In this document: positions 12,651 through 27,783 of the stretch, piece by piece | How the letters are laid out: the number at the start of each line of letters is the position of its first letter | Numbering within the stretch: position 1 is the stretch's first letter | NCBI GenBank assembly: GCA_030390025.1 | Contig: JASTWF010000324.1 | Location: forward strand, 372,001-436,000 | Reading direction: 5' to 3' | Source of the DNA: Squalus acanthias | Taxonomy: Eukaryota | Length of the DNA: 64,000 nucleotides | Notes under the pieces: model-generated | Database searches by the model: none | The model's input: the letters and a program-made list of their open reading frames with translations, nothing else | Told to the model about the DNA's origin: nothing | Position numbers and translations under genes: made by a program

Positions 12651-13219
12651 TTATAAGAAGGTTCACAAGAATTGAAACACAGTGTAAAATCCAATTTCCC
12701 CCGGATCAGAGTGGTGATGTGTCAGGAGATCGGCTCGGGTAACCCCTCCAGTAATTGCCTCACCCCTCTCCTGTTTCAGCGAAGGTGAGAAGAATTATTC
12801 AATTACCTATCTGCCGTGGCACGAGCTCTCCACAAGTCTAACTGACAACGCAGCCAACAAGGATTTCTCTGTCACTCTGGGAATGGGAGGAAGGATGAAT
12901 GTGACGGCTACACGGACCATCAATATCAACTAATATAAACGTCAAGCTCACCATTTTACTCACAGCTATTTCCCAGGCTACTGATTACATTAGCACATAA
13001 TAGAGCGAGCTGCTCTCAGCACTTCCCTCTCTCTCCCCTCCCCAGCAATGTGGCAGCGGCCGCCTACAATGAAACAAGTTCATTCTCTAACGTCTGCAGC
13101 CGGAGTAAATCTTCCGGGTGTCAGTGAAGCCCGATTCCGTGTCCTCGCCAGGATTGAATGATTTCCAGCCTGACTCCATAAGAGGAGATTTTAAAGCATT
13201 TCCACCAGTTTCCCTCCTA

Positions 13220-15772
13220 ATAATGGGAAACAAGGAAATGGCAGAGGCATTGAACAAATATTTTGAATCTGCCTTCACAGTAGAAGCCACTAAAAACATC
13301 TCAGTAATAATAGAAAATCAAGGGGCAAAAGGGAGGGAGGAACTTAAAACAATCACTATCACGAGAGAAAAAGTGCTTGGCAAACTTATGGGTCTAAAGG
13401 CTGACAAGTCCCCTGGACCTGATGGCCTGCATCCTAGGATCTTAAAAGAAGTGGCTACAGAGATAGTGGATGCATTGGTTGTAATCTTCCAAAATTCCCT
13501 TGACTCTGGAAAAGTCTCAGCGGATTGGAAAACCGCAAATGTAACGCCCTTATTCAAAAAAGGAGGGAGACAAAAAGCAGGAAACTATAGGTCAGTTAGC
13601 CTAATATCTGTCACTGGGAAAATGCTCGAATCCATTATTAAGGAAGTAGTAGCAGGACATTTAGAGAATCATAATACAATCAAGCAGAGTCAACATAGTT
13701 TTATGAAAGGGAAATCGTGTTTGACAAATTTATTAGGGTTCTTTGAGGAGGTAACGAGCAGGGTGGATCAAGGGGAACCAGTTGATGTAGTGTATTTGGA
13801 TTTCCAAAAGGCATTCGACTAACAGAAAACAGAGAGTCGGGATAAATGGGTATTTTTCAGGATGGCAACCTGTAACTAGTGGGGTGCCACAGGGATCAGT
13901 GCTGGGGCCTCAACTATTTACAATCTATATTAATGACTTGGATGAAGGAAGCGAGTGTACTGTAGCCAAATTTGCTGATGATATCAAGATAGGTGGGAAA
14001 GCAAGTTGTGAGGAGGACATTAAGGGGGAAAAATTCGGTATCGCCCCGTTTGGGGCGCAATTATAGGCCGGGCGCAAAGTTTAGCGCCCAGTGCTAATTA
14101 TCACCTCCGACTGCAAACTTGGCTTCTATCGCCCCTGGAGGTGATTGGAGAGCTAAATCAGGCGCTACACACCTCTGTTAAGGCGCTAACGCCGAGGAGC
14201 GAGGCGCTACCTCAGAGCGCTGGCGAAGCTCATGTGATGTCAGTCAGCAATGGAACACAGACACACTGGCGCCGGCCAGTTCTTAAAGGGGAGGGTCAAT
14301 CTTGCTCTCCATCCACACCCTGCTCATTGCAGCCTTGAATCTCGGCCTGGAGAGACCTGTACATCAATTCTGCTGGAAAGAACAATGGAGAGGCCCAGGG
14401 AAAGAGCTCAGAGTGCAGCCCCCACAGTCTCTTCTAAATCAATACAAGGAAGGGCAAATCAAAATGAACCTGCAAAGTGCTGCTCAGTACCCAAAACTCC
14501 TTCACACAGCGTTGAATCTCTCCAGAAGTCTCTCTCTCTCTCAGAATGCGTGGTGCAAAAATGTCGCCGACAAAAAAAAGGCAGGAAGCGGCTTTAAATA
14601 GCGCTCCCCTAGTCCCTTCCTGACTGCAAAACGCTCCCCTTAACCTGTCGTTGCTAGCGGCAGGCGGTAAGGCAGGGGGCGCCACTCAATATCTGGTCCG
14701 GGGCGCTACCGGGGCGTTGCGCACTCGACTGACGTGACGATCTGCGGGCGCAGGAGATCGTGGCGGTAGTGTTTAGTGCCGCCGCAAAATATCTGGTCAA
14801 TTTCGCGAGTGGCGCAAACATCGCCGCGCACGAGCGCTAGTTGCTTTGGGAGGCGCATAGCAACCGAATTTTCCCCCCAAAGAGTCTGCAAAGGGATAGA
14901 GACAGGTTAAGTGAGTGGGCAATAAGGTGGCAGATGGAGTATAATGTGGGAAAATGTGAGGTTATCCACTTTGGCAGAAAGAATAGAAAAGCAAAATATT
15001 ATTTAAATGGAGAGGGACTACAGAATGCTGAGGTACAGAGGAATCTGGGGGTCCTCGTACATGAAACACAAAAAGTTAGCACACAGGAACAGCAAGTAAT
15101 TAGGAAGGCAAATGGAATGTTGGCCTTTATTTCAAGGGGGATGGAGTATAAGAGTAAGGAAGTCTTGCTACAACTGTACAGGGTGTTGGTGAGACCACAC
15201 CTAGAGTACTGCGTACAGTTTTGGTCTCCTCATTTAAGGAGGGATATACTTGCATTGGAGGCAGTTCAGAGAAGGTTCACTAGGTTGATTCCTGGGATGA
15301 AGGGCTTGTCTTACGGGGAAAGGTTGAGCAGGTTGGGTCTACACTCATTGGAATTTAGAAGAATGAGAGGTGATCTTATTGAAACATATAAGATTCTGAG
15401 AGGGCTTGACAAGGTAGATGCAGAGAGGGTGTTTCCCCTCGTGGGGGAGTCGAGAACTAGAGGGCACAATTTCAGAATAAGGGGTCACCCATTTAAGACA
15501 GAGATGAGGAGGAATTTCTTCTCTCAGAGGGTCGTGAATCTTTGGAATTCTCTACCCCAGAGAGCTGTGGAGGCTGAGTCATTGAATATATTCAAGGCTG
15601 AGATAGACAGATTTTTGAACTACAGGGGAGTTGAGGGTTATGGGGAGCGGGCAGGAAAGTGGAGTTGAGGCCAAGATCAGATCAGCCATGATCTTATTGA
15701 ATGGCGGAGCAGGCTCGAGGGGCCAAATGGCCTACTCCTGCTCCTATTTCTTATGTTCTTATGTTCTTATGT
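13220..15772 (+). mobile_element. 5'-truncated CR1 LINE (RT domain and 3' UTR) with an internal deletion near 13818, interrupted by a MITE at 14024-14877
   Basis: 'KSPGPDGLHPRILKE...YLDFQKAFD', '[20 protein letters not shown]...FADD' and 'SLQRDRDRLSEWA...WNSLP'. Ends in a (ttcttatg)n tail at ~15748-15772. Confidence 0.93.
14024..14877. mobile_element. Non-autonomous DNA transposon (MITE), probably PIF/Harbinger-type
   Basis: Terminal inverted repeats GGGGGAAAAATTCGGT ... ACCGAATTTTCCCCC, with GC-rich subterminal arms. It splits the CR1 RT between 'CEEDIK' and 'SLQRD'. Confidence 0.75.
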
Positions 15773-16028
15773 AACCTGTCTCGCACTTCTCTCTTTTTCT
15801 CTGCTCCTCTCATCTGTCCCTCGCTCGTCCTTTGACGAACCCTCTTGCTGTCACTCCCTCTCTCACTCCCAATCTCCTATTTACTATATCCCTCCTTCTC
15901 TCTGCCTCTGTATCAATTCTGCTCCTTTATACCCCTTCTCTATTGGTCACCTTTTCGGTTTCTCTCTGTTTTCACACTCCCTCTCTCTCTCACACATTGT
16001 CTCTCTCTCTCTGATAGTTGCTCTCTCT

Positions 16029-17003
16029 ATACACTGTCCCATCAAACACTCCCAGGGCAGGTACAGCACGGATTAGATACAGAGTAAAGCTCCCTCTACA
16101 CTGTCCCATCAAACACTCCCAGGGCAGGTACAGCACGGGTTAGATACAGAGTAAAGCTCCCTCTGCACTGTCCCATCAAACACTCCCAGGGCAGGTACAG
16201 CACGAGTTATATACAGAGTAAAGCTCAATCTACACTGTCCCATCAAACACTCCCAGGGCAGAACAGCACGGGTTAGATATAGAGTAAAGCTCCCTCTACA
16301 CTGTCCCATCAAATACTCCCAGGGCAGGTACAGCACGAGTTAGATACAGAGTAAAGCTCAATCTACACTGTCCCATCAAACACTCCCAGGGCAGGTACAG
16401 CACGGGTTAGATACAGAGTAAAGCTCCCTCAACATTGTCCCATCAAACACTCCCAGGGCAGGTACAGCACGGATTAGATACAGAGTAAAGCTCCCTCTAC
16501 ACTGTCCCATCAAATACTCCCAAGGCAGGTACAGCACGGGTTAGATACAGAGTAAATCTCCCTCTACACTGTCCCATCAAACACTCCCAGGGCAGGTACA
16601 GCATGGGTTAGATACAGAGTAAAGCTCCCTCTACACTGTCCCATCAAACACTCCCAGGGCAGGTACAGCACGGATCAGATACAGAGAAAAGCTCCCTCTA
16701 CACTGTCCCATCAAACACTCCCAGGGCAGGTACAGCACGGGTTAGATACAGAGTAAAGCTCCCTCTACACTGTCCCATCAAACACTCCCAGGGCAGGTAC
16801 AGCACGGATTAGTTACAGAGTAAAACTCCCTCTACACTGTCCCATCAAACACTCCCAGGGCAGGTACAGCACGGATTAGTTACAGAGTAAAGCTCCCTCT
16901 ACATTGGCCCATCAAACACTCGCAGGGCGGTACAGCACGGATTAGATACAGAATAAAGCTCCCTCTACACTGTCCCATCAAACACTCCCAGGGCAGGTAC
17001 AGC
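16029..17003 (+). repeat. 67-bp satellite array (~14 units), left flank of the LTR element
   Basis: Same unit as 1014-3811. Ends abruptly at ...ggtacagc|TGTAG. Confidence 0.97.
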
Positions 17004-17575
17004 TGTAGAATTCGCAAAATTATCGCGATTTTATAATAATGAGAAGGAGACAAAAAGTTTCGTACAAACAGCTTTATTTCAGCAGAATGCTGTCAGGTTT
17101 CAAAACGGACACAAACAGCCTGTAAAATGGCCGCCACGCCTCGTGGCAGAATGTTCTAGACTTTCAGTAGGCAGACAAGATGGCGTTTCAATAAACATTT
17201 CAGCAAGATCGGACAGGACTCAGCACATTTGAGATAATGACAAGACGCGATGGGTTTGCATTTCAAACATAAATACTGGAATCGGTTTTCCAGGTACAAA
17301 CGAGGGCTATTGTACTGAGCGATCAAGGACCCATCCAAAGACATTGATATGCAAATTCCCCACGGCTCTACGATGAGAGAGCCGTTCGCGGGTACTCACA
17401 GCAAGCATTTGGAAGCCCCAAAACCCCTCCAGGGAGACTACTAACCGGTTCCACAATGGGAGAAATATTAACGGGTACTCAGACAGTTACAAGTATCACC
17501 GTAACCCATTAAAGACTGAGATCACCCCATACAAGAAGTTTTGAGCGCCAAAACATGACAAAAGATAGACATTAA

Positions 17576-17612
17576 GATTGGGCGGGAAAATAGGAATTAC
17601 AGCACTATAACT
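17576..17612 (+). promoter_or_regulatory. Putative LTR Pol II promoter (ATTGG/GC box and TATA-like element)
   Basis: gattgggcggg lies ~30 bp upstream of ctataa, which is followed ~25 bp later by a pyrimidine-rich start region. Confidence 0.5.
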
Positions 17613-18411
17613 GTAAAGTACAACCGCCCATCTCTCTCTTGCTGCTTTGACTCGCTGGAAGGCTGCTGAACTGCCTGACGACTCTGGACTCTGATCCGCC
17701 AGGATCAACCTCGTGGCTTGCCGCGAAGATCTGTGGAGAACTGGGCTGCGAAGACCTGGAAGTGGGCGCACCATCCCGAGAAGTCGGTAAACGGTGTTGG
17801 AACCGAAGGCCCGAGAGGAGATGAGATGAGATGAGATGAGAAGAGAAGAAGACGACAATACGTATCGCCACGGTCAGTAAACCCCGACTGCGCCTCTAAA
17901 TATAAGGACCATTTCTTCGAATTCTATCGGCTACTCCACAACTGGTGTTGGTCCGAAAAGACTCTTCTTTGAATTTTACCGGCTAACGGGTGCCGGGCAT
18001 AGGAAGACTCTTCTTTGAGTTTTGTCAGAGTTCCGAGGACAACACAGATCTTCATGACAGCAGACGGTCCAGCCTGCTAGCCGGAGCAGAAGCGAGCAAA
18101 CAAGTGGGGTACAGAGACCCCTGATCAACACGTGGATAGTCAGGTGCTGCGGTAAAAACATCCGAGCAGAGTTTCGGAATTCTCCGAGTTATCACGAGTG
18201 GTGAGCATGAGTCTCGATCCTACAAATCTAGATTAGGACAGGTATTGATAGGGGAGGGTTTAAGTTTTAAGGATAATTATAATGTGTGTCCCCTTTTACG
18301 ATGTGTCGTGCGCTCCTCGTTTCCCTAAACCTAGTTGCATAAATGTATGTAAGTTTGTACTGTCATTAATCTGTGCTTATGACATGTATTTCGTAGTCTT
18401 GAATAATATGC

Positions 18412-18417
18412 AATAAA
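18412..18417 (+). terminator. Putative LTR polyadenylation signal
   Basis: AATAAA preceded by a T/GT-rich region and followed by T-rich sequence, inside the LTR. Confidence 0.5.
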
Positions 18418-18573
18418 GATTTTCCATTTCGCACTATTCAACCGGGTCTACCTGAGTTTTCTCTGCATTATTGCTCTCGCACCTAAGTCCAGTGTCAGAA
18501 CCGTAAGGGCAAGTGGGTCGAACCACTCACAGGTGTCTAGTGTTACCAGGCTGGCTGGAGACCAGAACAGGCA

Positions 18574-18905
18574 AACATAGAAACATAGAATCTAGGAACA
18601 GGAGTAGGCCATTCGGCCCGTCGAGCCTGCTCCGCCATTCAATACGATCATGGCTGATCATCCAAATCCAGTACCCTGTCCCTGCTTTAATCCCCACAGT
18701 ACACATATCCCACCCTACCCCCGTAACCCCACGTATTTAATTCCCCCTAACATATCCCCTCCTATCCCCACATATTTAATCCCCCCTAACACGAAGGGTC
18801 AATTTATCATAGCCAAATCAACCTAACCCACACATTTTTGGACTGTGGGAGGAAACCGGAGCACCCGGAGGAAACCCACGCAGACACGGGGAGAATGTGC
18901 AAACA
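18574..18905 (-). mobile_element. HE1-like (V-SINE core and CR1-type tail) SINE fragment inside the LTR
   Basis: 'ggaggaaaccggagcacccggaggaaacccacgcagacacggggagaatgtgcaaac' is the reverse V-SINE core. 'aacatagaaacatagaa...aggccattcggccc...gctccgccattcaat' is the reverse CR1 3' tail (compare 15690-15770). Confidence 0.75.
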
Positions 18906-18967
18906 AGGCCTAACCCCGCACTAGCACCCAGGCTAAGCACAGAGCCACCCGAAACCCCTTACAGATA

Positions 18968-20767
18968 ATGGCGACCACGAAGGGACACTGGCAGCGAGAA
19001 AATAATGTGTTAGACCCTGGTATGAATGTGCAAAATGTTATGGAAGAGAGAATAGCCGATTATGTTTTTGGAAAAGTGAATTTGACTAAGAGATGGATAA
19101 GTGACCTGCTGGTGGATAAGCGTCCACTAGAGGCAGCCGTGAGGTGGACAGGCAGCAAGGAACATAAAAAATCTGTAGAGAAAGCGGTCTGGCTGATGTG
19201 TTATAAAAGGCAAGTCCAGCTTTCGGACCAGGTCATCATAGCGCAGGCAGCTCAGATCAAGGGTTTAGAGGTGGAAATGGACGAGAAGGTCGCAGGGGGG
19301 CAGCAGCTCATCGCGTCTTTAAATGCGTTGCATCAAGAACGCCAGTTAGTCGCCAACCACCATAAGGCGAAAATAGATTACCTCGAGTGCCAGGTCACTG
19401 AGGCAAAATTAAATGAGGGCAGAATAAGGGAGCGATGTGCCCGCCTAGCTGCTCAAATAAAAGCCCAGGAAGAGAGCTTAAAGGGGGTTAGGGCGGCATA
19501 TAAGATGGCCCTCGAGGATAAACATGAGGGGGCCGATCACAGCGTCTGCCAAAGAGAGATAGGGAACCTTAAAGAGGCCCTGAACAAAGCGCACGGCATG
19601 GTGTGCCTTATCAGCCCGTCAGCACACCAGCCGCCGGTGGGTGGGGAATTTCAGAAATCCCCACCGAACAAAGCAGAGGAGGTATTTGCCACTGTGCCCT
19701 CCGCGCCACCCAGCTATTCGGCAACCTGGGTAAGGGAGGAAGTGGTAGAAGTAGAGGAAGAGGTCCCCGAGGTAGGACAGCCCCCTAAAGTAGTAGTGAA
19801 GCCGGGAGCGTTGTGCCCACTTACGGGTATCAAGAGGGGCCCGGAGGGAGACAATGGGGAAGAGGGGAATCTCCTCAACCAGCTTGTGTTGCCTCACAGC
19901 GCACACCAGCTGAGGGCTATGATTAGCCACGTACGGAAGCTGTCCGAGTCAGACGACCCTTCCGTACATTTCAGGGAGGTAGAGCAGACCGCGGCCATTA
20001 ACGGCTGCGACGATGGGGAAAGGGCAAAAATGCTGCTGTTCTCTTTAGACAGCTCGATCCTCCAGTGTCTCTCAGACGTGAGCAAAAGGGGTAATAGGAC
20101 CTATGAGGAGTTAAGAGATGAGGTCCTGGAAGTGTTGGGGGCGGACGACGAAGGTCCGTTTGTGAGATTGGGACAGACTATGCAGATGGAGGGAGAACCC
20201 CAGAAGGTTTTCGCCGACAGGCTGTGGCCTGTCTATCAGCGTAGTTGCCCAGGCGCGCCCGAGCGCGTTGATTTAGACGCCGTTGGTTTAGCTCACTGGC
20301 TCAGATGTATAGTAGCCAACAGCTTACCAGCCGTGAGGGAGCAGGCCAAAGCGTGGTTTGATCCCATTAACCCCGCCACAACAGAGGAGTCGGTCCTAAA
20401 TCGACTCACGGTAGGGTACCGTAATACCAGGAGTACGGGGGCACGTCCCCTTAAGGGTAAGGTGCATGAGGCGCGGCCCACAGCCCCGGCTCAAAAGGAG
20501 CGGCATCAGGAGGGAAATCGCGTCCCACAAGCCAGTAATGCTTGTTTCGGATGCGGAAAAACAGGGCACTGGCGCAAGAACTGCAGGAATCCTTGGAAGG
20601 AGTCCAGGGATAAAAATCCCGCAGTCCGAGCCCAGGCGCCTGTCTCCGATAGGGGAGCTGGTGCACCTATCCATCCCGATGCGATCGAATCAATGTTAGG
20701 AGCCATGCGGTCTCTCATGATTTTGCACGGGAAGGTAGCAACAGCCCCATGCAACCCGGACTTCTGA
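18968..20767 (+). CDS. gag: Gag polyprotein (599 aa)
   Basis: Uninterrupted ORF. N-terminal coiled coil, PSAPPSY late domain (19697-19717), capsid-like 'HFREVEQTAAINGCDDGERAKMLLFSL', and CX2CX4HX4C knuckle CFGCGKTGHWRKNC (20543-20584). Confidence 0.9.
   Translation: MATTKGHWQRENNVLDPGMNVQNVMEERIADYVFGKVNLTKRWISDLLVDKRPLEAAVRWTGSKEHKKSVEKAVWLMCYKRQVQLSDQVIIAQAAQIKGLEVEMDEKVAGGQQLIASLNALHQERQLVANHHKAKIDYLECQVTEAKLNEGRIRERCARLAAQIKAQEESLKGVRAAYKMALEDKHEGADHSVCQREIGNLKEALNKAHGMVCLISPSAHQPPVGGEFQKSPPNKAEEVFATVPSAPPSYSATWVREEVVEVEEEVPEVGQPPKVVVKPGALCPLTGIKRGPEGDNGEEGNLLNQLVLPHSAHQLRAMISHVRKLSESDDPSVHFREVEQTAAINGCDDGERAKMLLFSLDSSILQCLSDVSKRGNRTYEELRDEVLEVLGADDEGPFVRLGQTMQMEGEPQKVFADRLWPVYQRSCPGAPERVDLDAVGLAHWLRCIVANSLPAVREQAKAWFDPINPATTEESVLNRLTVGYRNTRSTGARPLKGKVHEARPTAPAQKERHQEGNRVPQASNACFGCGKTGHWRKNCRNPWKESRDKNPAVRAQAPVSDRGAGAPIHPDAIESMLGAMRSLMILHGKVATAPCNPDF
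18969..18986 (+). promoter_or_regulatory. Primer-binding site, tRNA-Arg(UCG)-type
   Basis: TGGCGACCACGAAGGGAC is the reverse complement of GTCCCTTCGTGGTCGCCA, which I recall as the 3' end of vertebrate tRNA-Arg(TCG) plus CCA. It lies directly after the LTR end. Confidence 0.85.
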
Positions 20768-21871
20768 CTGGAACCGGCACAGCCCGCCTACCTGTGTCCC
20801 CTAGAAAGACGCGCACAGGAGGGGGTCTCCTGTAAGGAGGCCAGGTTGAAAGAGCAGGCCTTGCAGGAGGAGAACGCCCGCTTAATAGGGAAAGTAGACG
20901 AGCTGGAAGGGCAGCTTAGAGAGCAGGCCCTGCGGGAGGAGAACGCCCACTTAATGGGGAAAGTAGATGGGCTAGAAGGGCAGCTTAGAGAGATAAAAGC
21001 AGCCTACAGGGTAGCCAGAAGCAGGGATTTAAATCAGTGCAAACTGTATAAGCCGGGTGCGCAAGGGCCAACCACAGGGGCCAAACCTGCGAGTGGGGAC
21101 TCGCAGCCCCGGGTAGGGCCACAGGACACACAGGCAGGCAAAGCAGCTTGCATCAGGGGAGAGGACATCCTGGCGAAATGCAGGATCCTTTATTGGGGTT
21201 GGGAGTCAGATGAGGAAGAGTTCGAGGAGCTCGACCAAGATAGTGACACAAGCGAAGAGGAGCTGGAATCGGAGGACGAAAGGGTCGCCCCCGATTCAGG
21301 TATAGGGTAGATAGGGACTGCAGATGGAGATCCACACAGGGTGGAGACAGAAGCTGCAGGTCCCGAGATCAGGGGGGCGGAGCTAGGGGAGGCGGGGCCA
21401 GCGGCTGTGGTGGGACCACAGGACGTGGCAATGGAAGCCTCAGAACCCAGTCCGTCCGCCTTGGAAGTCTTGCCCTCGAGGGAGGTAGGGATTGCGAGTG
21501 AAGGGCCGCCGACTGGGCCAAGTAGGGCGGTGCCAAAGGCTGCAGATCCCGAGTTCAGGGAGGCGGAGTCAGGGGAGGCGGAGCCAGCGACTGTGGTGGG
21601 ACCACAGGTCGCCACGGTGGAAGTCTCGAAACCCGGTCTGTCGGTCCTGGAGTTCCTGCCCCCGGTAGTTCCCCGTAGGTCAAGTCGGACACCCCAGCCT
21701 AGGAAGATGTGGGTAAGCCCCCAGAGTGTCCCAAGGCGTAGGTTCAAGGCTAAGGCAGCCCAGGGAGATCCCAGTCCCAGCGCAGCAGCGACAAGCTGCG
21801 GCAGATCAAAGGAAGGGGTCAGTGCCCCCCCACCGTTGGGAAAAGCTTGTGGCCGCCTTCACAGAATTTGA
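20768..21871 (+). CDS. ORF X: in-frame continuation of gag (coiled-coil repeat, acidic tract, 62-aa repeat, Arg/Pro-rich tail), with one internal TAG at 21308-21310
   Basis: Track ORFs 20846..21310 and 21341..21871 are both in the gag frame. The linkers 20768-20845 and 21311-21340 contain no stops. Confidence 0.6.
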
Positions 21872-22147
21872 GTAGGCCGCCCTGGGAACGGGCGGCGCTG
21901 TACAGTTATAAGATAAGTGATAAGTTTTATAGTTTATAAGTTTTAAGTTTGAAGTTTGATAGTTAAAATTTTAATAAGGAAAATGGTAAAATGATGGGAG
22001 TTAGAGATAGGAATAGTTAAAGTCTATCCAGTGCACATGTCTTCTTACGTGAGGCGAGGTCAGGGGACCCGCTCACCCTTCACAAAAGCCAGAGACTCTT
22101 GGGAGGCTGGCTACCTCATTCTATCTGATCACAGGAACCAAGGAAGG

Positions 22148-23899
22148 ATGGAACGGATTCTGGTAGTGCTCGCGGCAATCGGATGTGGACTGGCCTATCG
22201 AGGCCGCACAAAGGATGTCGTGGTGTTTGGATGCTCCGGGGACACGGCCCCCATCGCGGTGGATGGGACCGGAAGGCGAGAGGCTGAGGAGACCGCCACT
22301 TATTTCCACAAAGGAAGGTGGCCAGGATGGCTGGGAACGAATTCAACTGAATATTCCTGTACATCGGGATTTGCCTACAAAGAGACTTCTTTAATGTGCC
22401 CCAAAGTGAGGATCATCGCACCCAGAGTGCCATTGAGCCGATGGTGGTGGCTACGAAAGCTGAGCAAAAACATGAGGAACTCTTCGGTCGAGTGGGAGCG
22501 ACTGGGTAATAATACGCATCGGACAATTACGGGGACTAACGGACAATTGAGAGTCTGTTGGGACAAATGGTGGGAACCGGATGAGGAAATCTATGTATGT
22601 ATGTGGGGGTCAAAGCACATTTGCCCCAAAGGCATCTCCATATTTTTCATCAATCAGTGGCAGGATAATGGGAAAGGGATGAGGTGGGATGCAAGCACCA
22701 GGGGGTGCGGGGCCCCATACTCTCCAATCCCGGTAAACGCCACTGAACTCATTACGCGCCCACGCAAGGCCCCGCCCACAATTCTGGTGGTTCTAGCTAA
22801 GGAAGAAGGGTGCCCTAAAACCAGGAAGGGACCCGGAAATGGTTTGGTACTGGTCCCTACAGACCAGCTACTATTTCAGGGGGTACATTACGCGGTGGCC
22901 TCGGTGATTTTAAACCTCACCGAGGTGCGGTTGCCGGAGTGGTGCCCCAAAGAGACGGAACAGTTATATCACGTCCTGTTGACCAAGATGTTTAGGCAAT
23001 TTTATGAGTTCGATTTCGCGGAAATTGATAAAACAAGTTTGTACACCGCACCACATGAAGTTTTGGGTCAGGTGGGGAGACAAAGAAGGGATGTTGTGAA
23101 CGACATGTTCACTGCTTTCAATGCAGGTACATCTGTGGTCAACGCTCTAGACAGCGTGGAGCTGCAGACCCAGATTAATGGCTTAAAAACACAATTGAAG
23201 AACATTCTCACAGATGAAAATAAGGTGGTTGGGTCTGGGTTACATGAGGACGAGGCCATGACGCTACACTTAAAGGAAATTATAGCAGAGCTGGAGAAGC
23301 ATGCGAGAACGGTAAATGCCCTGATTAGGGAAGATCGGAATGCATCCGATCAAGCTGCGCAGAATGAGGTGTGCGTGCTTTACGGGGCGTGGTTACTGTG
23401 CGAGGGCCGCAGTAATTTGGAGGATTTAAAACAAGGTTTGGTCCCTTCCTGGATAAGTAACAAACATCTGCAGGCGATCCACCCTTTTCAGAACGCATTA
23501 AGCCCGTGCCAGCTCAAGCTAGCTTCAGAAGCATACCCAATCCCCGTGGACTGCGGACGGTCAAATCATACCATTATGGGTGTAGTTTTACGTATGCCGG
23601 TTTTGGGTGACACAGCAAAGCCCGCCCCGGTGTATCGGGTAGAGAACATTGGTGTCATTCAGGGGGGAGCCCACATTCGCTATGCAACGGTTCCACCTTA
23701 CGTCATCCGCTGGGAGCAAACGATGACAGGTACAGATCTCTCTGGTTGTCGTGGCAGGGGAGCACACATAATCCTGTGTCCCCAGCACTTGAATGCCTTT
23801 TTATCACCACAGTGCGGGTTCAGAACGGCTGGCGCCAAGCCCATGAATTGCAACATGGAGGCAATGGCACAAGATCGGGTTAGATACAGCACGGGTTAG
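22148..23899 (+). CDS. env: Envelope/fusion glycoprotein, C-terminally truncated
   Basis: ATG 22148 follows a splice-acceptor-like ctgatcacAG (22133-22134). Signal peptide MERILVVLAAIGCGLA, several NxS/T sequons, furin site RQRR (23078-23089), fusion-peptide-like segment, heptad repeat and Cys-rich region. No TM helix; the stop codon is supplied by the satellite. Confidence 0.82.
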   Translation: MERILVVLAAIGCGLAYRGRTKDVVVFGCSGDTAPIAVDGTGRREAEETATYFHKGRWPGWLGTNSTEYSCTSGFAYKETSLMCPKVRIIAPRVPLSRWWWLRKLSKNMRNSSVEWERLGNNTHRTITGTNGQLRVCWDKWWEPDEEIYVCMWGSKHICPKGISIFFINQWQDNGKGMRWDASTRGCGAPYSPIPVNATELITRPRKAPPTILVVLAKEEGCPKTRKGPGNGLVLVPTDQLLFQGVHYAVASVILNLTEVRLPEWCPKETEQLYHVLLTKMFRQFYEFDFAEIDKTSLYTAPHEVLGQVGRQRRDVVNDMFTAFNAGTSVVNALDSVELQTQINGLKTQLKNILTDENKVVGSGLHEDEAMTLHLKEIIAELEKHARTVNALIREDRNASDQAAQNEVCVLYGAWLLCEGRSNLEDLKQGLVPSWISNKHLQAIHPFQNALSPCQLKLASEAYPIPVDCGRSNHTIMGVVLRMPVLGDTAKPAPVYRVENIGVIQGGAHIRYATVPPYVIRWEQTMTGTDLSGCRGRGAHIILCPQHLNAFLSPQCGFRTAGAKPMNCNMEAMAQDRVRYSTG

Positions 23900-26800
23900 A
23901 TACAGAGTAATGCTACCTCTACACCGTCCCATCAAACACTCCCAGGGCAGGTACAGCACGGGTTAGATACAGAGTAAAGCTCCCTCTACACTGTCCCATC
24001 AAACACTCCCAGGGCAGGTACAGCACGGGTTAGATACAGAGTAAAGCTCCCTCTACACTGTCCCATCAAACACTCCCAGGGCAGGTATAGCACGTGTTAG
24101 ATACAGAGGAAAACTCCCTCTACACTGTCCCATCAAACACTCCCAGGGCAGGTACAGCACGGGGTTAGATACAGAGTAAAGCTCCCTCTACACTGTCCCA
24201 TCAAACACTCCCAGGGCAGGTACAGCACGGGGAAGATACAGAGTAAAGCTCCCTCTACACTGTCCTATCAAACACTCCCAGGGCAGGTACAGCACGGGGT
24301 TGCATACAGAGGAAAGCTCCCTCTACACTGTCCCATCAAACACTCCCAGGGCAGGTACAGCACGGGGTTAGATACAGAGTAAAGCTCCCTCTACACTGTC
24401 CCATAAAACACTCCCAGGGCAGGTACAGTACAGGGTTAGGTACAGAGTAATGCTACCTCTACACCGTCACATCAAACACTCCCAGGACAGGTACAGCACG
24501 GGTTAGATACAGAGTAAAGCTCCCTCTACACTGTCCCATCAAACACTCCCAGGGCAGGTGCAGCACGGGTTAGATACAGAGTAAAGCTCCCTCTACACTG
24601 TCGCATCAGACACTCCCAGGGCAGGTACAGCAAGGGATCGATACAGAGTAAAGCTCCCTCTACACTGTCCCATCAAACACTCCCAGGGCAGGTACAGCAC
24701 AGGTTAGATTCAGAGTAAAGCTCCCACTACACTGTCCCATCAAACACTCCCAGGGCAGGTACAGCACGGGGTAGATACAGAGTAAAGATCCCTTAACACT
24801 GTCCCATCAAGCACTCCCAGGGCAGGTACAGCACAGGTTAGATACAGAGTAAAGCTCCCTCTACACTGTCCCATCAAACACTCCCAGGTCAGGTACAGCA
24901 CGGGGTAGATACAGAGGAAAGCTCACTCTACACTGTCCCATCAAACACTCCCAGGCCAGGTACAGCACGGGTTAGATACAGAGTAAAGCTCCCTCTACAC
25001 TGTCCCATCAAACACTCCCAGGGCAGGTACAGCACGGGTTAGATACAGAGTAAAGCTCCCTCTACACTGTCCCATCAAACACTCCCAGGGCAGTTACAGC
25101 ACGGGTTAGATACAGAGTAAAACTCCCTCTACACTGTCCCATCAAACACTCCCAGGGCAGGTACAGCACAGGTTAGATACAGAGTAAAGCTCCCTCTACA
25201 CTGTTCCAACAAACACCCCCAGGGCAGATACAGCACGGGTTAGATACAGAGCAAAGCTCCCTCTACACTGTCCCCATCAAATACTCCCAGGGCAGGTACA
25301 GCACGGGTTAGATACAGAGTAAAGCTCCCTCTACACTGTCCCATCAAACACTCCCAGGGCAGGTACAGCACGGGTTAGATACAGAGTAAAGCTCCCTCTA
25401 CACTGTCCCATCAAACACTCCCAGGGCAGGTACAGCACGGGGAAGATACAGAGTAAAGCTCCCTCTACACTGTCCCATGAAACACTCCCAGGACAGGTAC
25501 AGCACGGGACAGATACAGAGTAAAGCTCCCTCTACACTGTCCCATCAAACACTCCCAGGGCAGGTACAGCACAGGTTAGATAAAGAGTAAAGCTACCTCT
25601 ACACTTTCCCATCAAACGCTCCCAGGGCAGGTACAGCACGGGGTTAGATACAGAGTAATGCTACCTCTACACCGTCCCATCAAACACTCCCAGGACAGGT
25701 ACAGCACGGGTTAGATACAGAGTAAAGCTCCCTCTACACTGTCCCATCAAACACTCCCAGGGCAGGTACAGCACGGGTTAGATACAGAGTAAAGCTCCCT
25801 CTACACTGTCCCATCAAACACTCCCAGGGCAGGTATAGCACGTGTTAGATACAGAGGAAAACTCCCTCTACACTGTCCCATCAAACACTCCCAGGGCAGG
25901 TACAGCACGGGGTTAGATACAGAGTAAAGCTCCCTCTACACTGTCCCATCAAACACTCCCAGGGCAGTTACAGCACGGGTTAGATACAGAGTAAAACTCC
26001 CTCTACACTGTCCCATCAAACACTCCCAGGGCAGGTACAGCACAGGTTAGATACAGAGTAAAGCTCCCTCTACACTGTTCCAACAAACACCCCCAGGGCA
26101 GATACAGCACGGGTTAGATACAGAGCAAAGCTCCCTCTACACTGTCCCCATCAAATACTCCCAGGGCAGGTACAGCACGGGTTAGATACAGAGTAAAGCT
26201 CCCTCTACACTGTCCCATCAAACACTCCCAGGGCAGGTACAGCACGGGGAAGATACAGAGTAAAGCTCCCTCTACACTGTCCCATGAAACACTCCCAGGA
26301 CAGGTACAGCACGGGACAGATACAGAGTAAAGCTCCCTCTACACTGTCCCATCAAACACTCCCAGGGCAGGTACAGCACAGGTTAGATAAAGAGTAAAGC
26401 TACCTCTACACTTTCCCATCAAACGCTCCCAGGGCAGGTACAGCACGGGGTTAGATACAGAGTAATGCTACCTCTACACCGTCCCATCAAACACTCCCAG
26501 GACAGGTACAGCACGGGTTAGATACAGATTAAAGCTCCCTCTACACTGTCCCATCAAACAAACCCAGGGCAGGTACAGCACGGGGTTAGATACAGAGTAA
26601 AGCTCCGTCTACACTGTCCCGTCAAACACTCCCAGGGCAGGTACAGCACGGGTTAGATACAGAGTAAAGCTCCCTCTACACTGTCGCATCAAACACTCCC
26701 AGGGCAGGTACAGCACGGGATAGATACAGAGTAAAACTCCCTCTACTCTGTCCCATCAAACACTCCCAGGGCAGGTACAGCACGGGTTAGATACAGAGTA

Positions 26801-27780
26801 AAGCTCCCTCTACACTGTCCCAACAAACACTCCCAGGGCAGGTACAGCACGGGTTAGATACAGAGTAAAGGTCCCTCTACACTGTCCCATCAAAAACTCC
26901 CAGGGCAGGTACAGCACGGGTTAGATACAGAGTAAAACTCCCTCTACACTGTCCCATCAAACACTCCCAGGCCAGGTACAGCACAGGTTAGATACAGAGT
27001 AAAGCTCCCTCTACACTGTCCCATCAAACACTCCCAGGGCAGGTACAGCACGGGTTAGATACAGCGTAAAGCTCCCTCTACACTGTCCCCATCAAACACT
27101 CCCAAGGCAGGTACAACACGCGTTAGATACATAGTAAAGCTCCCTCTACACTGTCCCATCAAACACTCCCAGGGCAGGTACAGCACGGGTGAGATACAGA
27201 GTAAAGGTCCCTCTACACTGTCCCATCAAACACTCCCAGGGCAGGTACAGCACGGGTTAGATACAGAGTAAAACTCCCTCTACACTGTCCCATCAAACTC
27301 TCCCAGGGCAGGTACAGCACGGGTATGATGCAGAGTATAGCCCCCTCTACACTGTCCCATCAAACACTCCCAGGCCAGGTACAGCACGGGTTAGATACAG
27401 AGGAAAGCTCCCTCTACACTGTCCCATCAAACACTCCCAGGGCAGGTACAGCACGGGGTTAGATACAGAGTAAAGCTCCCTCTACACTGTCCCATCAAAC
27501 ACTCCCAGGGCAGGTACATCACGGCATTATATACAGAGTAAAGCTCCCTCTACACTGTCCCATCAAACACTCCCAGGGCAGGTACAGCACGGGGTTAGAT
27601 ACAGAGTAAAGCTCCCTCTACACTGTCCCATCAAACACTCCCAGGGCAGGTGCAGCACGGGTTAGATACAGAGTAAAGCTCCCTCTACACTGTCCCATCA
27701 AACACTCCCAGGGCAGGTACAGCACGGGTTAGAGACAGAGTAAAGCTCCCTCTACACTGTCCCATCAAACACTCGCAGGG
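23877..27780 (+). repeat. 67-bp satellite array (~58 units)
   Basis: Same unit as 1014-3811, fused directly to the truncated env. Confidence 0.97.
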
Positions 27781-27783
27781 GAG

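Follow-up and report, generated by a model that had tools for sequence, protein, structure and literature searches.

A pol-less gag-X-env provirus of Squalus acanthias with a candidate stop-codon readthrough junction

A stretch of 64,000 nucleotides from Squalus acanthias (GCA_030390025.1, contig JASTWF010000324.1, positions 372,001 to 436,000; hereafter the window) was analysed. It contains a truncated gag-X-env provirus that lacks pol and belongs to a high-copy family of cartilaginous fishes. The gag frame continues past its UGA stop into an open reading frame of 367 codons (ORF X). In three organisms the coding frame of ORF X is preserved all the way from the UGA to the stop that ends it. 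On sequence grounds we consider it likely that ORF X is the tail of a minor Gag-X readthrough product, which takes the Gag-Pol slot and co-assembles with Gag while the enzymes are supplied in trans. The junction probably yields small amounts of an extended capsid protein, and we found no description of such a protein for retroviruses. To our knowledge, a leaky stop after gag is known in retroviruses only as a switch metering Pol. In this element the stop seems to have survived the loss of pol and to control the amount of another product, one derived from Gag.

The gag-X frame and its conservation

Translation of gag (18968-20767) and ORF X (20768-21871) gave a single frame of 968 codons, as the earlier note on this DNA had claimed. 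Its stops are the TGA of gag (20765-20767), a TAG (21308-21310) and the terminal TGA (21869-21871), with none besides. Contigs of four of 20 runs (X1 and X11, organism A; X16, organism B; X9, organism D) were compared over 20400-22400. The features of the frame are:

20765..20771, plus strand: candidate readthrough site UGA-CUG-G (sequence; register kept in diverged contigs)
20768..21871, plus strand: ORF X, 367 codons in the gag frame (translation, stop simulations, contig comparison)
20782..20826, plus strand: predicted hairpin starting 14 nucleotides 3′ of the TGA (folding, -20.7 kcal/mol)
21308..21310, plus strand: TAG inside X, probably a lesion that arose in this copy or sub-lineage (one diverged contig is stop-free there)
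21869..21896, plus strand: terminal stop of X and a 7-bp GC hairpin at 21876-21896 (diverged run X16 contig)

ORF X is open far beyond chance. The other five frames across 20768-21871 hold 5-18 stops each. Composition-matched random sequence had a mean of 10.7-12.8 stops under three models, and at most one stop was found in 0, 0 and 1 of 5000 simulations. Because two internal duplications (periods of 69 and 186 nucleotides, each divisible by three) supply part of the length, this chance figure is somewhat overstated. The first in-frame ATG is at 20954, codon 63. An ORF on the minus strand (21190-21858) had no family match in the protein-family search and was taken as a shadow.

All 30 bins of 20400-22400 were covered in each of the four runs. 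Indel rows were counted at a share of at least 20%, yielding ten: two in X, six of 1-2 nucleotides in the spacer downstream of X, and two in env that cancel each other. Both X rows (+2 and +4) belong to one contig with a net change of +6, leaving no uncompensated frameshift among the X indel rows. The p value of 7e-5 for the contrast between X and spacer is overstated because the six spacer rows stem from about three contigs. Sized length changes in X were 69, 186, +6, +9, +39, +189 and -188, six of the seven being in frame (p 0.007); this count excludes four joints with inserts of unknown size (48, 49, 156, 1063) and one strand-switch joint. Substitution figures rest on the 40 of 202 rows that were listed (26 in X, 7 in gag, 7 in env). 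Thirteen of the listed X rows were third-position changes, ten were synonymous and none created a stop; synonymous rows were four of the seven listed for gag and likewise for env. Loose ends were read by eye among 24 of 187 rows, and the 15 listed inside X were all stop-free in the gag frame. As to a frameshifted or stop-filled X in other copies, named by the earlier note as counter-evidence, the rows listed for these contigs include no new stop in X and no uncompensated frameshift among its indel rows, with an out-of-frame replacement in one run X1 contig.

The gag stop is conserved in two diverged relatives; the earlier note had asked whether it is conserved in sister copies. Record 19 of run X16 differs upstream of the stop, has it in register and reads UGA-CUA-G. 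Leu-Glu-Pro after the stop is kept there despite three synonymous changes, as expected of translated codons. In four X9 contigs the upstream sequence differs and the match starts at 20765. The last codon of gag is Gln in record 19 and in these four contigs, likewise in skate Gags and P0003. Diverged contigs also retain Asn-Gln-Cys-Lys through synonymous changes. At the far end of X, the terminal stop is replaced by another stop codon in one diverged run X16 contig, which keeps both arms of the GC hairpin; this hairpin may act in packaging or splicing.

The gag stop is followed by CTG and LEPAQPAYLCPLE, and PGALCPLT lies upstream, all as described earlier; the LCPL likeness in this supposed echo is real and, on its own, weak. 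The internal TAG is flanked by two copies of ATAGGG, again as described. A diverged block replaces 21171-21326 in run X11 loose ends and a run X16 joint. Its last nine codons are stop-free and cover the place of the TAG only if no indel intervenes. The suggestion that the TAG is a secondary lesion is hence probable from one diverged lineage, evidence that does not extend to close sisters.

Content of ORF X and origin of the signal

ORF X is composed of the following blocks:

20834..21040, plus strand: duplicate of the C-terminal portion of the Gag coiled coil, containing a tandem repeat of 23 codons (profile score)
21203..21280, plus strand: acidic Asp/Glu-rich block (14 D/E in X residues 151-180)
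21338..21664, plus strand: two in-frame 62-codon Pro/Gly/Ala/Glu-rich units (period 186 nucleotides, 79% identity)
21674..21754, plus strand: basic block, rich in Arg and Lys, close to the C-terminus of X (10 K/R and zero D/E in X residues 301-330)

The duplicated coiled coil had been missed by the earlier note. X residues 23-91 scored 31.8 bits against a Gag N-terminal profile, which was built from 15 Gag N-terminal pieces with X left out. None of 994 shuffled controls reached this score (best of 494 shuffles, 6.9 bits; best of 500 heptad-block shuffles, 15.0), and the reversed sequence scored 0.3. The coil is nearer to the whale-shark Gag piece P0045 (53% over 34 residues) than to its own Gag. 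It is followed by a Pro/Gly linker, the acidic block, the two 62-codon Pro/Ala/Glu-rich units and the basic tail; the acidic, repeat and basic blocks are predicted to be disordered. The acidic block falls where run X11 and X16 contigs carry diverged replacement sequence, and one run X16 contig has an additional in-frame 62-codon unit. No protease or reverse transcriptase family was matched by either part of ORF X (parts X1 and X2) at E<=1, and part X2 had no similarity to Gag or to part X1. In the Atlas no match to X was found at 0.9, the best being unnamed at 0.86. Decayed protease or pol was considered as an identity for X and rejected: there is no family match, and the DSG near the TAG is not preceded by a hydrophobic lead-in and sits in a stretch without conservation.

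Published stop contexts were compared with the junction; here and below, statements on cited papers refer to the portions of each source that were available. UGA-CUA is the type II readthrough motif, and UGACUG is found in Trocara virus (PMC13517186, PMC3159437). Type II sites have CUA or CGG after the UGA, and with UGA-CUA a stimulatory 3′ stem-loop is a conditional feature. The alphavirus stop-context range, UGACUD, takes in UGACUG (PMC13517186). Readthrough of UGACUAG in human genes is at least ~1.3% (PMC13517186, PMC3159437). The element has UGA-CUG in this copy, within the alphavirus range, and UGA-CUA-G in record 19 of run X16, with conserved in-frame coding sequence 3′ of the stop. In the lokiretrovirus consensus sequences (PMC7947760 supplement), gag ends in TGA-CTA in six of six looked up and in TGN-CTA in a seventh; TGA-CTA is in frame with pol in the three readable ones. 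The terms 'readthrough' and 'stop codon' are absent from the available text of that paper (PMC7947760), and UGA-CUA at these junctions is a type II context not listed for retroviruses in the available part of a 2026 review (PMC13517186). Because lokiretrovirus gag-pol junctions read UGA-CUA, the gag-X family plausibly inherited its readthrough signal from a gag-pol junction. Searches of metagenome contigs (Gag alignment, Env) and viral contigs (Gag alignment, P0008) yielded neither related loci nor a helper, and phage records gave no match. The earlier proposal that a gag-pol signal is reused for Gag-X is supported by the register kept in two diverged relatives, the conserved X frame, the lack of pol and the lokiretrovirus UGA-CUA, and no test run refutes it.

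The proposed product would arise as follows. On unspliced RNA, most ribosomes would terminate at the gag UGA; a few percent would pass UGA-CUR and extend the chain by the 367 residues of X, with Gag-X as the minor product. This would be made where an autonomous virus makes Gag-Pol, at the stoichiometry of Gag-Pol, and would co-assemble with Gag as a minor particle component. The extra coiled coil may pair with Gag coiled coils, its own or those of a helper, and the disordered acidic, repeat and basic tail may bind RNA or partners. Reverse transcriptase and integrase would be supplied by the helper. Tentatively, and with some doubt on our part, the family might be a high-copy, envelope-bearing satellite retrovirus of sharks and rays that retained the gag-pol readthrough switch and exchanged Pol for a dedicated readthrough domain with a second Gag coiled coil at its head, Gag-X using this coil to capture or compete with helper Gag or Gag-Pol. 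If the reading as Gag-X is true, the Gag-Pol slot would be reusable for a structural or helper-binding domain, and there would be a testable handle on the route by which pol-less, env-bearing elements attain very high copy number. On the more tentative satellite reading, Gag-X would be to retroviruses what the coat-protein readthrough domain is to plant viruses, and would give a non-autonomous element a novel means of exploiting its helper.

Alternative readings and known systems

Several observations weigh against Gag-X readthrough. One run X1 contig (depth 22.6) carries an out-of-frame replacement in X, the exception among the seven sized length changes. The synonymous share, 10 of the 26 listed X rows, compares with 0.24-0.31 expected (p ~0.14). 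The downstream fold proposed for checking in the earlier note is predicted as the hairpin at 20782-20826, which is no more stable than shuffles (z -0.39, -0.68 and -1.71 for 60, 100 and 150 nucleotides). CUG after the gag UGA and TTC before it are not the classical context. No row falls at the TGA or the TAG among the 40 of 202 listed, which carries no weight either way for close sisters. No homologue of X was found among proteins of 201-643 residues. In nine other lokiretrovirus consensus sequences the annotation gives gag and pol as a single open frame (PMC7947760), and the element itself was not classed as a lokiretrovirus because pol is absent, leaving no reverse transcriptase to compare.

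Readthrough can protect RNA from nonsense-mediated decay, and the open frame might shield the unspliced RNA in this way while the X protein itself is of little consequence, X being an expanded low-complexity remnant of a Gag-Pro linker. X is indeed mostly low-complexity and variable in length, and its synonymous excess is non-significant. Low-complexity linkers open the pol frames of at least two lokiretrovirus consensus sequences, judged by eye (PMC7947760), and the link between readthrough and decay is treated as unresolved in the 2026 review (PMC13517186). We think RNA protection unlikely to be the whole role of X, which retains a recognisable Gag coiled coil, Leu-Glu-Pro and Asn-Gln-Cys-Lys kept via synonymous changes in diverged contigs, and an end stop in place. 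Accessory ORFs of retroviruses are often expressed by splicing, and X could be translated from a spliced mRNA with CTGAC over the stop as branch point and the AG at 20803-20804 as acceptor to a leader or gag exon. The branch-point-like CTGAC is ~36 nucleotides upstream of this AG, the most pyrimidine-rich of 21 scanned in 20700-20900 (13/17), and its A is kept in most run X9 depth. The same A is synonymously changed in 97% of run X1 depth and all run X11 and X16 depth, a diverged contig preserves the protein sequence encoded 5′ of the AG, and the listed rows, 24 of 187, include no loose end at 20805; splicing is distinctly improbable.

A decayed leftover is already disfavoured and we give it little credence. 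Here a second gag piece would have recombined behind the first upon loss of pol, remaining open since the family is young and G-rich. The Gag-derived start of X, nearer another Gag lineage than its own, the TAG in this copy and the lack of an annotated homologue are consistent with this. Gag homology covers only ~70 of 367 X codons, composition-matched controls carry 10-13 stops, and contigs diverged by at least 10-15% retain the frame, its start and its end while the spacer gathers indels of 1-2 nucleotides. It is extremely unlikely that X is a separate protein made by reinitiation or internal initiation. Translation is known to start at CUG in some cases, and the ATG at 20954 has G at +4, but a diverged relative has CUA in place of the CUG that follows the stop and still encodes Leu there, and the codons 5′ of the ATG are conserved as protein.

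The element was compared with known systems. Lokiretroviruses share a coiled-coil-led Gag, an F-type Env with a furin site and the TGA-CTA gag end (six of six looked up), and differ in encoding pol after the gag stop (PMC7947760). The CCHC knuckle of Gag and the extra N-terminal ~200 residues of Env set the element apart; its Env resembles lokiretrovirus Env proteins, as judged by eye. By the lokiretrovirus definition, it has an N-terminal coiled coil and retrovirus-like capsid in Gag, and an F-type Env with an RXKR-like cleavage site, which is not diagnostic; it does not have gag, pol and env between two long terminal repeats (LTRs), since pol is absent and the 3′ LTR is missing here. Lokiretroviruses were present in none of the six cartilaginous-fish genomes of that study (PMC7947760). 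Bik-1 (BHIKHARI, zebrafish), a recently active, helper-dependent element, is likewise pol-less with a Gag of ~600 residues containing a coiled coil and capsid; it has a single long ORF, and the available part of its description mentions neither env nor a readthrough extension (10.1101/2024.03.25.586437).

Gammaretroviruses, epsilonretroviruses, SnRV, SSSV and ZFERV also have an in-frame stop 3′ of the zinc knuckle, which is read through on unspliced RNA (PMC13517186). Unlike the element, their contexts are UAGGGA, UAGGGC, UGAAGA, UGACGA and UGAAGU, without UGA-CUR, and their product is Gag-Pro-Pol rather than a non-enzymatic tail (PMC13517186); neither an aspartic protease nor a reverse transcriptase follows the stop in the element. 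The gag stop context of SnRV, a single virus that may not define clade Huo, is UAG-GGC, where the element has UGA-CUR (PMC13517186). Closer to the proposed Gag-X are minor structural proteins extended at the C-terminus by a leaky stop: the coat-protein readthrough domains of polero- and enamoviruses (PMC9553062), the coat-protein extension of furoviruses and that of phage Qbeta (PMC3159437), and coltivirus VP9′ (PMC13517186). These belong to unrelated RNA viruses without homology to the element, and the extension does not replace a polymerase gene. No description was found of a retroelement in which ribosomes pass the gag stop into a non-enzymatic ORF, in a literature whose coverage was incomplete, Repbase reports being mostly lacking.

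The provirus and its surroundings

The order is probable LTR and leader, gag, X, a 276-nucleotide spacer and env, the whole set lying within a 67-bp satellite. Neither the sequence nor the protein-family search revealed pol between gag and env, and no 3′ LTR was found within the window. The remaining parts are:

17004..18962, plus strand: probable long 5′ LTR and leader with inferred boundaries (TGT start adjoining the 67-bp satellite, TACA end)
18969..18986, plus strand: candidate primer-binding site (TGG-starting 18-mer, TACA and 5 nucleotides upstream)
18968..20767, plus strand: gag, 599 codons (homology, predicted structure, family search)
21872..22147, plus strand: AT-rich non-coding spacer without pol (sequence; indel rows)
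22148..23881, plus strand: env, F-type fusion protein (homology; Atlas neighbours)

The LTR and leader contain TATAA at 17901, AATAAA at 18412 and an insert resembling a short interspersed nuclear element (~18574-18905), which has matches elsewhere in the window. An LTR end at 17940 was abandoned, the primer-site candidate at 18969 being better; the latter may be of tRNA-Arg type. The first gag-frame ATG overlaps this candidate site (18968-18986), and the first residues that result are common to relatives. By comparison with relatives, the invariant Met of Gag is residue 25.

Gag is 57% identical to a skate protein. It comprises an N-terminal coiled coil (~19169-19516), a capsid domain (~19817-20440) and one CCHC knuckle (20540-20587; zf-CCHC match, E 0.0035), and its predicted structure has a long N-terminal helix at residues 68-183. 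In the structure search, capsid matches spanned E 0.002-0.03; the best folds were HTLV-1, MLV and HIV-1 capsid at E 0.002-0.007, none reaching E<=0.001.

The spacer contains a candidate env splice acceptor at 22133-22134 with a pyrimidine tract of 12/17. Env is ~70% identical to skate and sawshark proteins and has a furin-type RQRR at 23078-23089. The Atlas neighbours of its rear part were Baculo_F, Gypsy and Fusion_gly at 0.91-0.94; its predicted structure was unusable, with a predicted local distance difference test score of 31. The first ~200 residues (22148-22750) are maybe immunoglobulin V-like, with weak CRTAM matches (E 0.49 and 0.93). Contig depth at the start of env (22075-22400) was several-fold above that of gag and X in runs X1, X11 and X16. 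This hints at more families, perhaps the helper, with the same env, contig depth being a poor measure.

Env ends before its membrane anchor, cut off by the 67-bp satellite from 23882. The satellite array flanks the provirus at 16027-17003 and 23882-27783 and also takes the place of the 3′ end. A deletion through the array and an assembly join are both possible causes of the 3′ loss, and because this end is lost, the copy is dead and incapable of activity. Upstream of the array, a piece of a long interspersed nuclear element (13200-15790), presumably CR1/L2-type from the appearance of its sequence, is broken by another insert at ~14025-14880.

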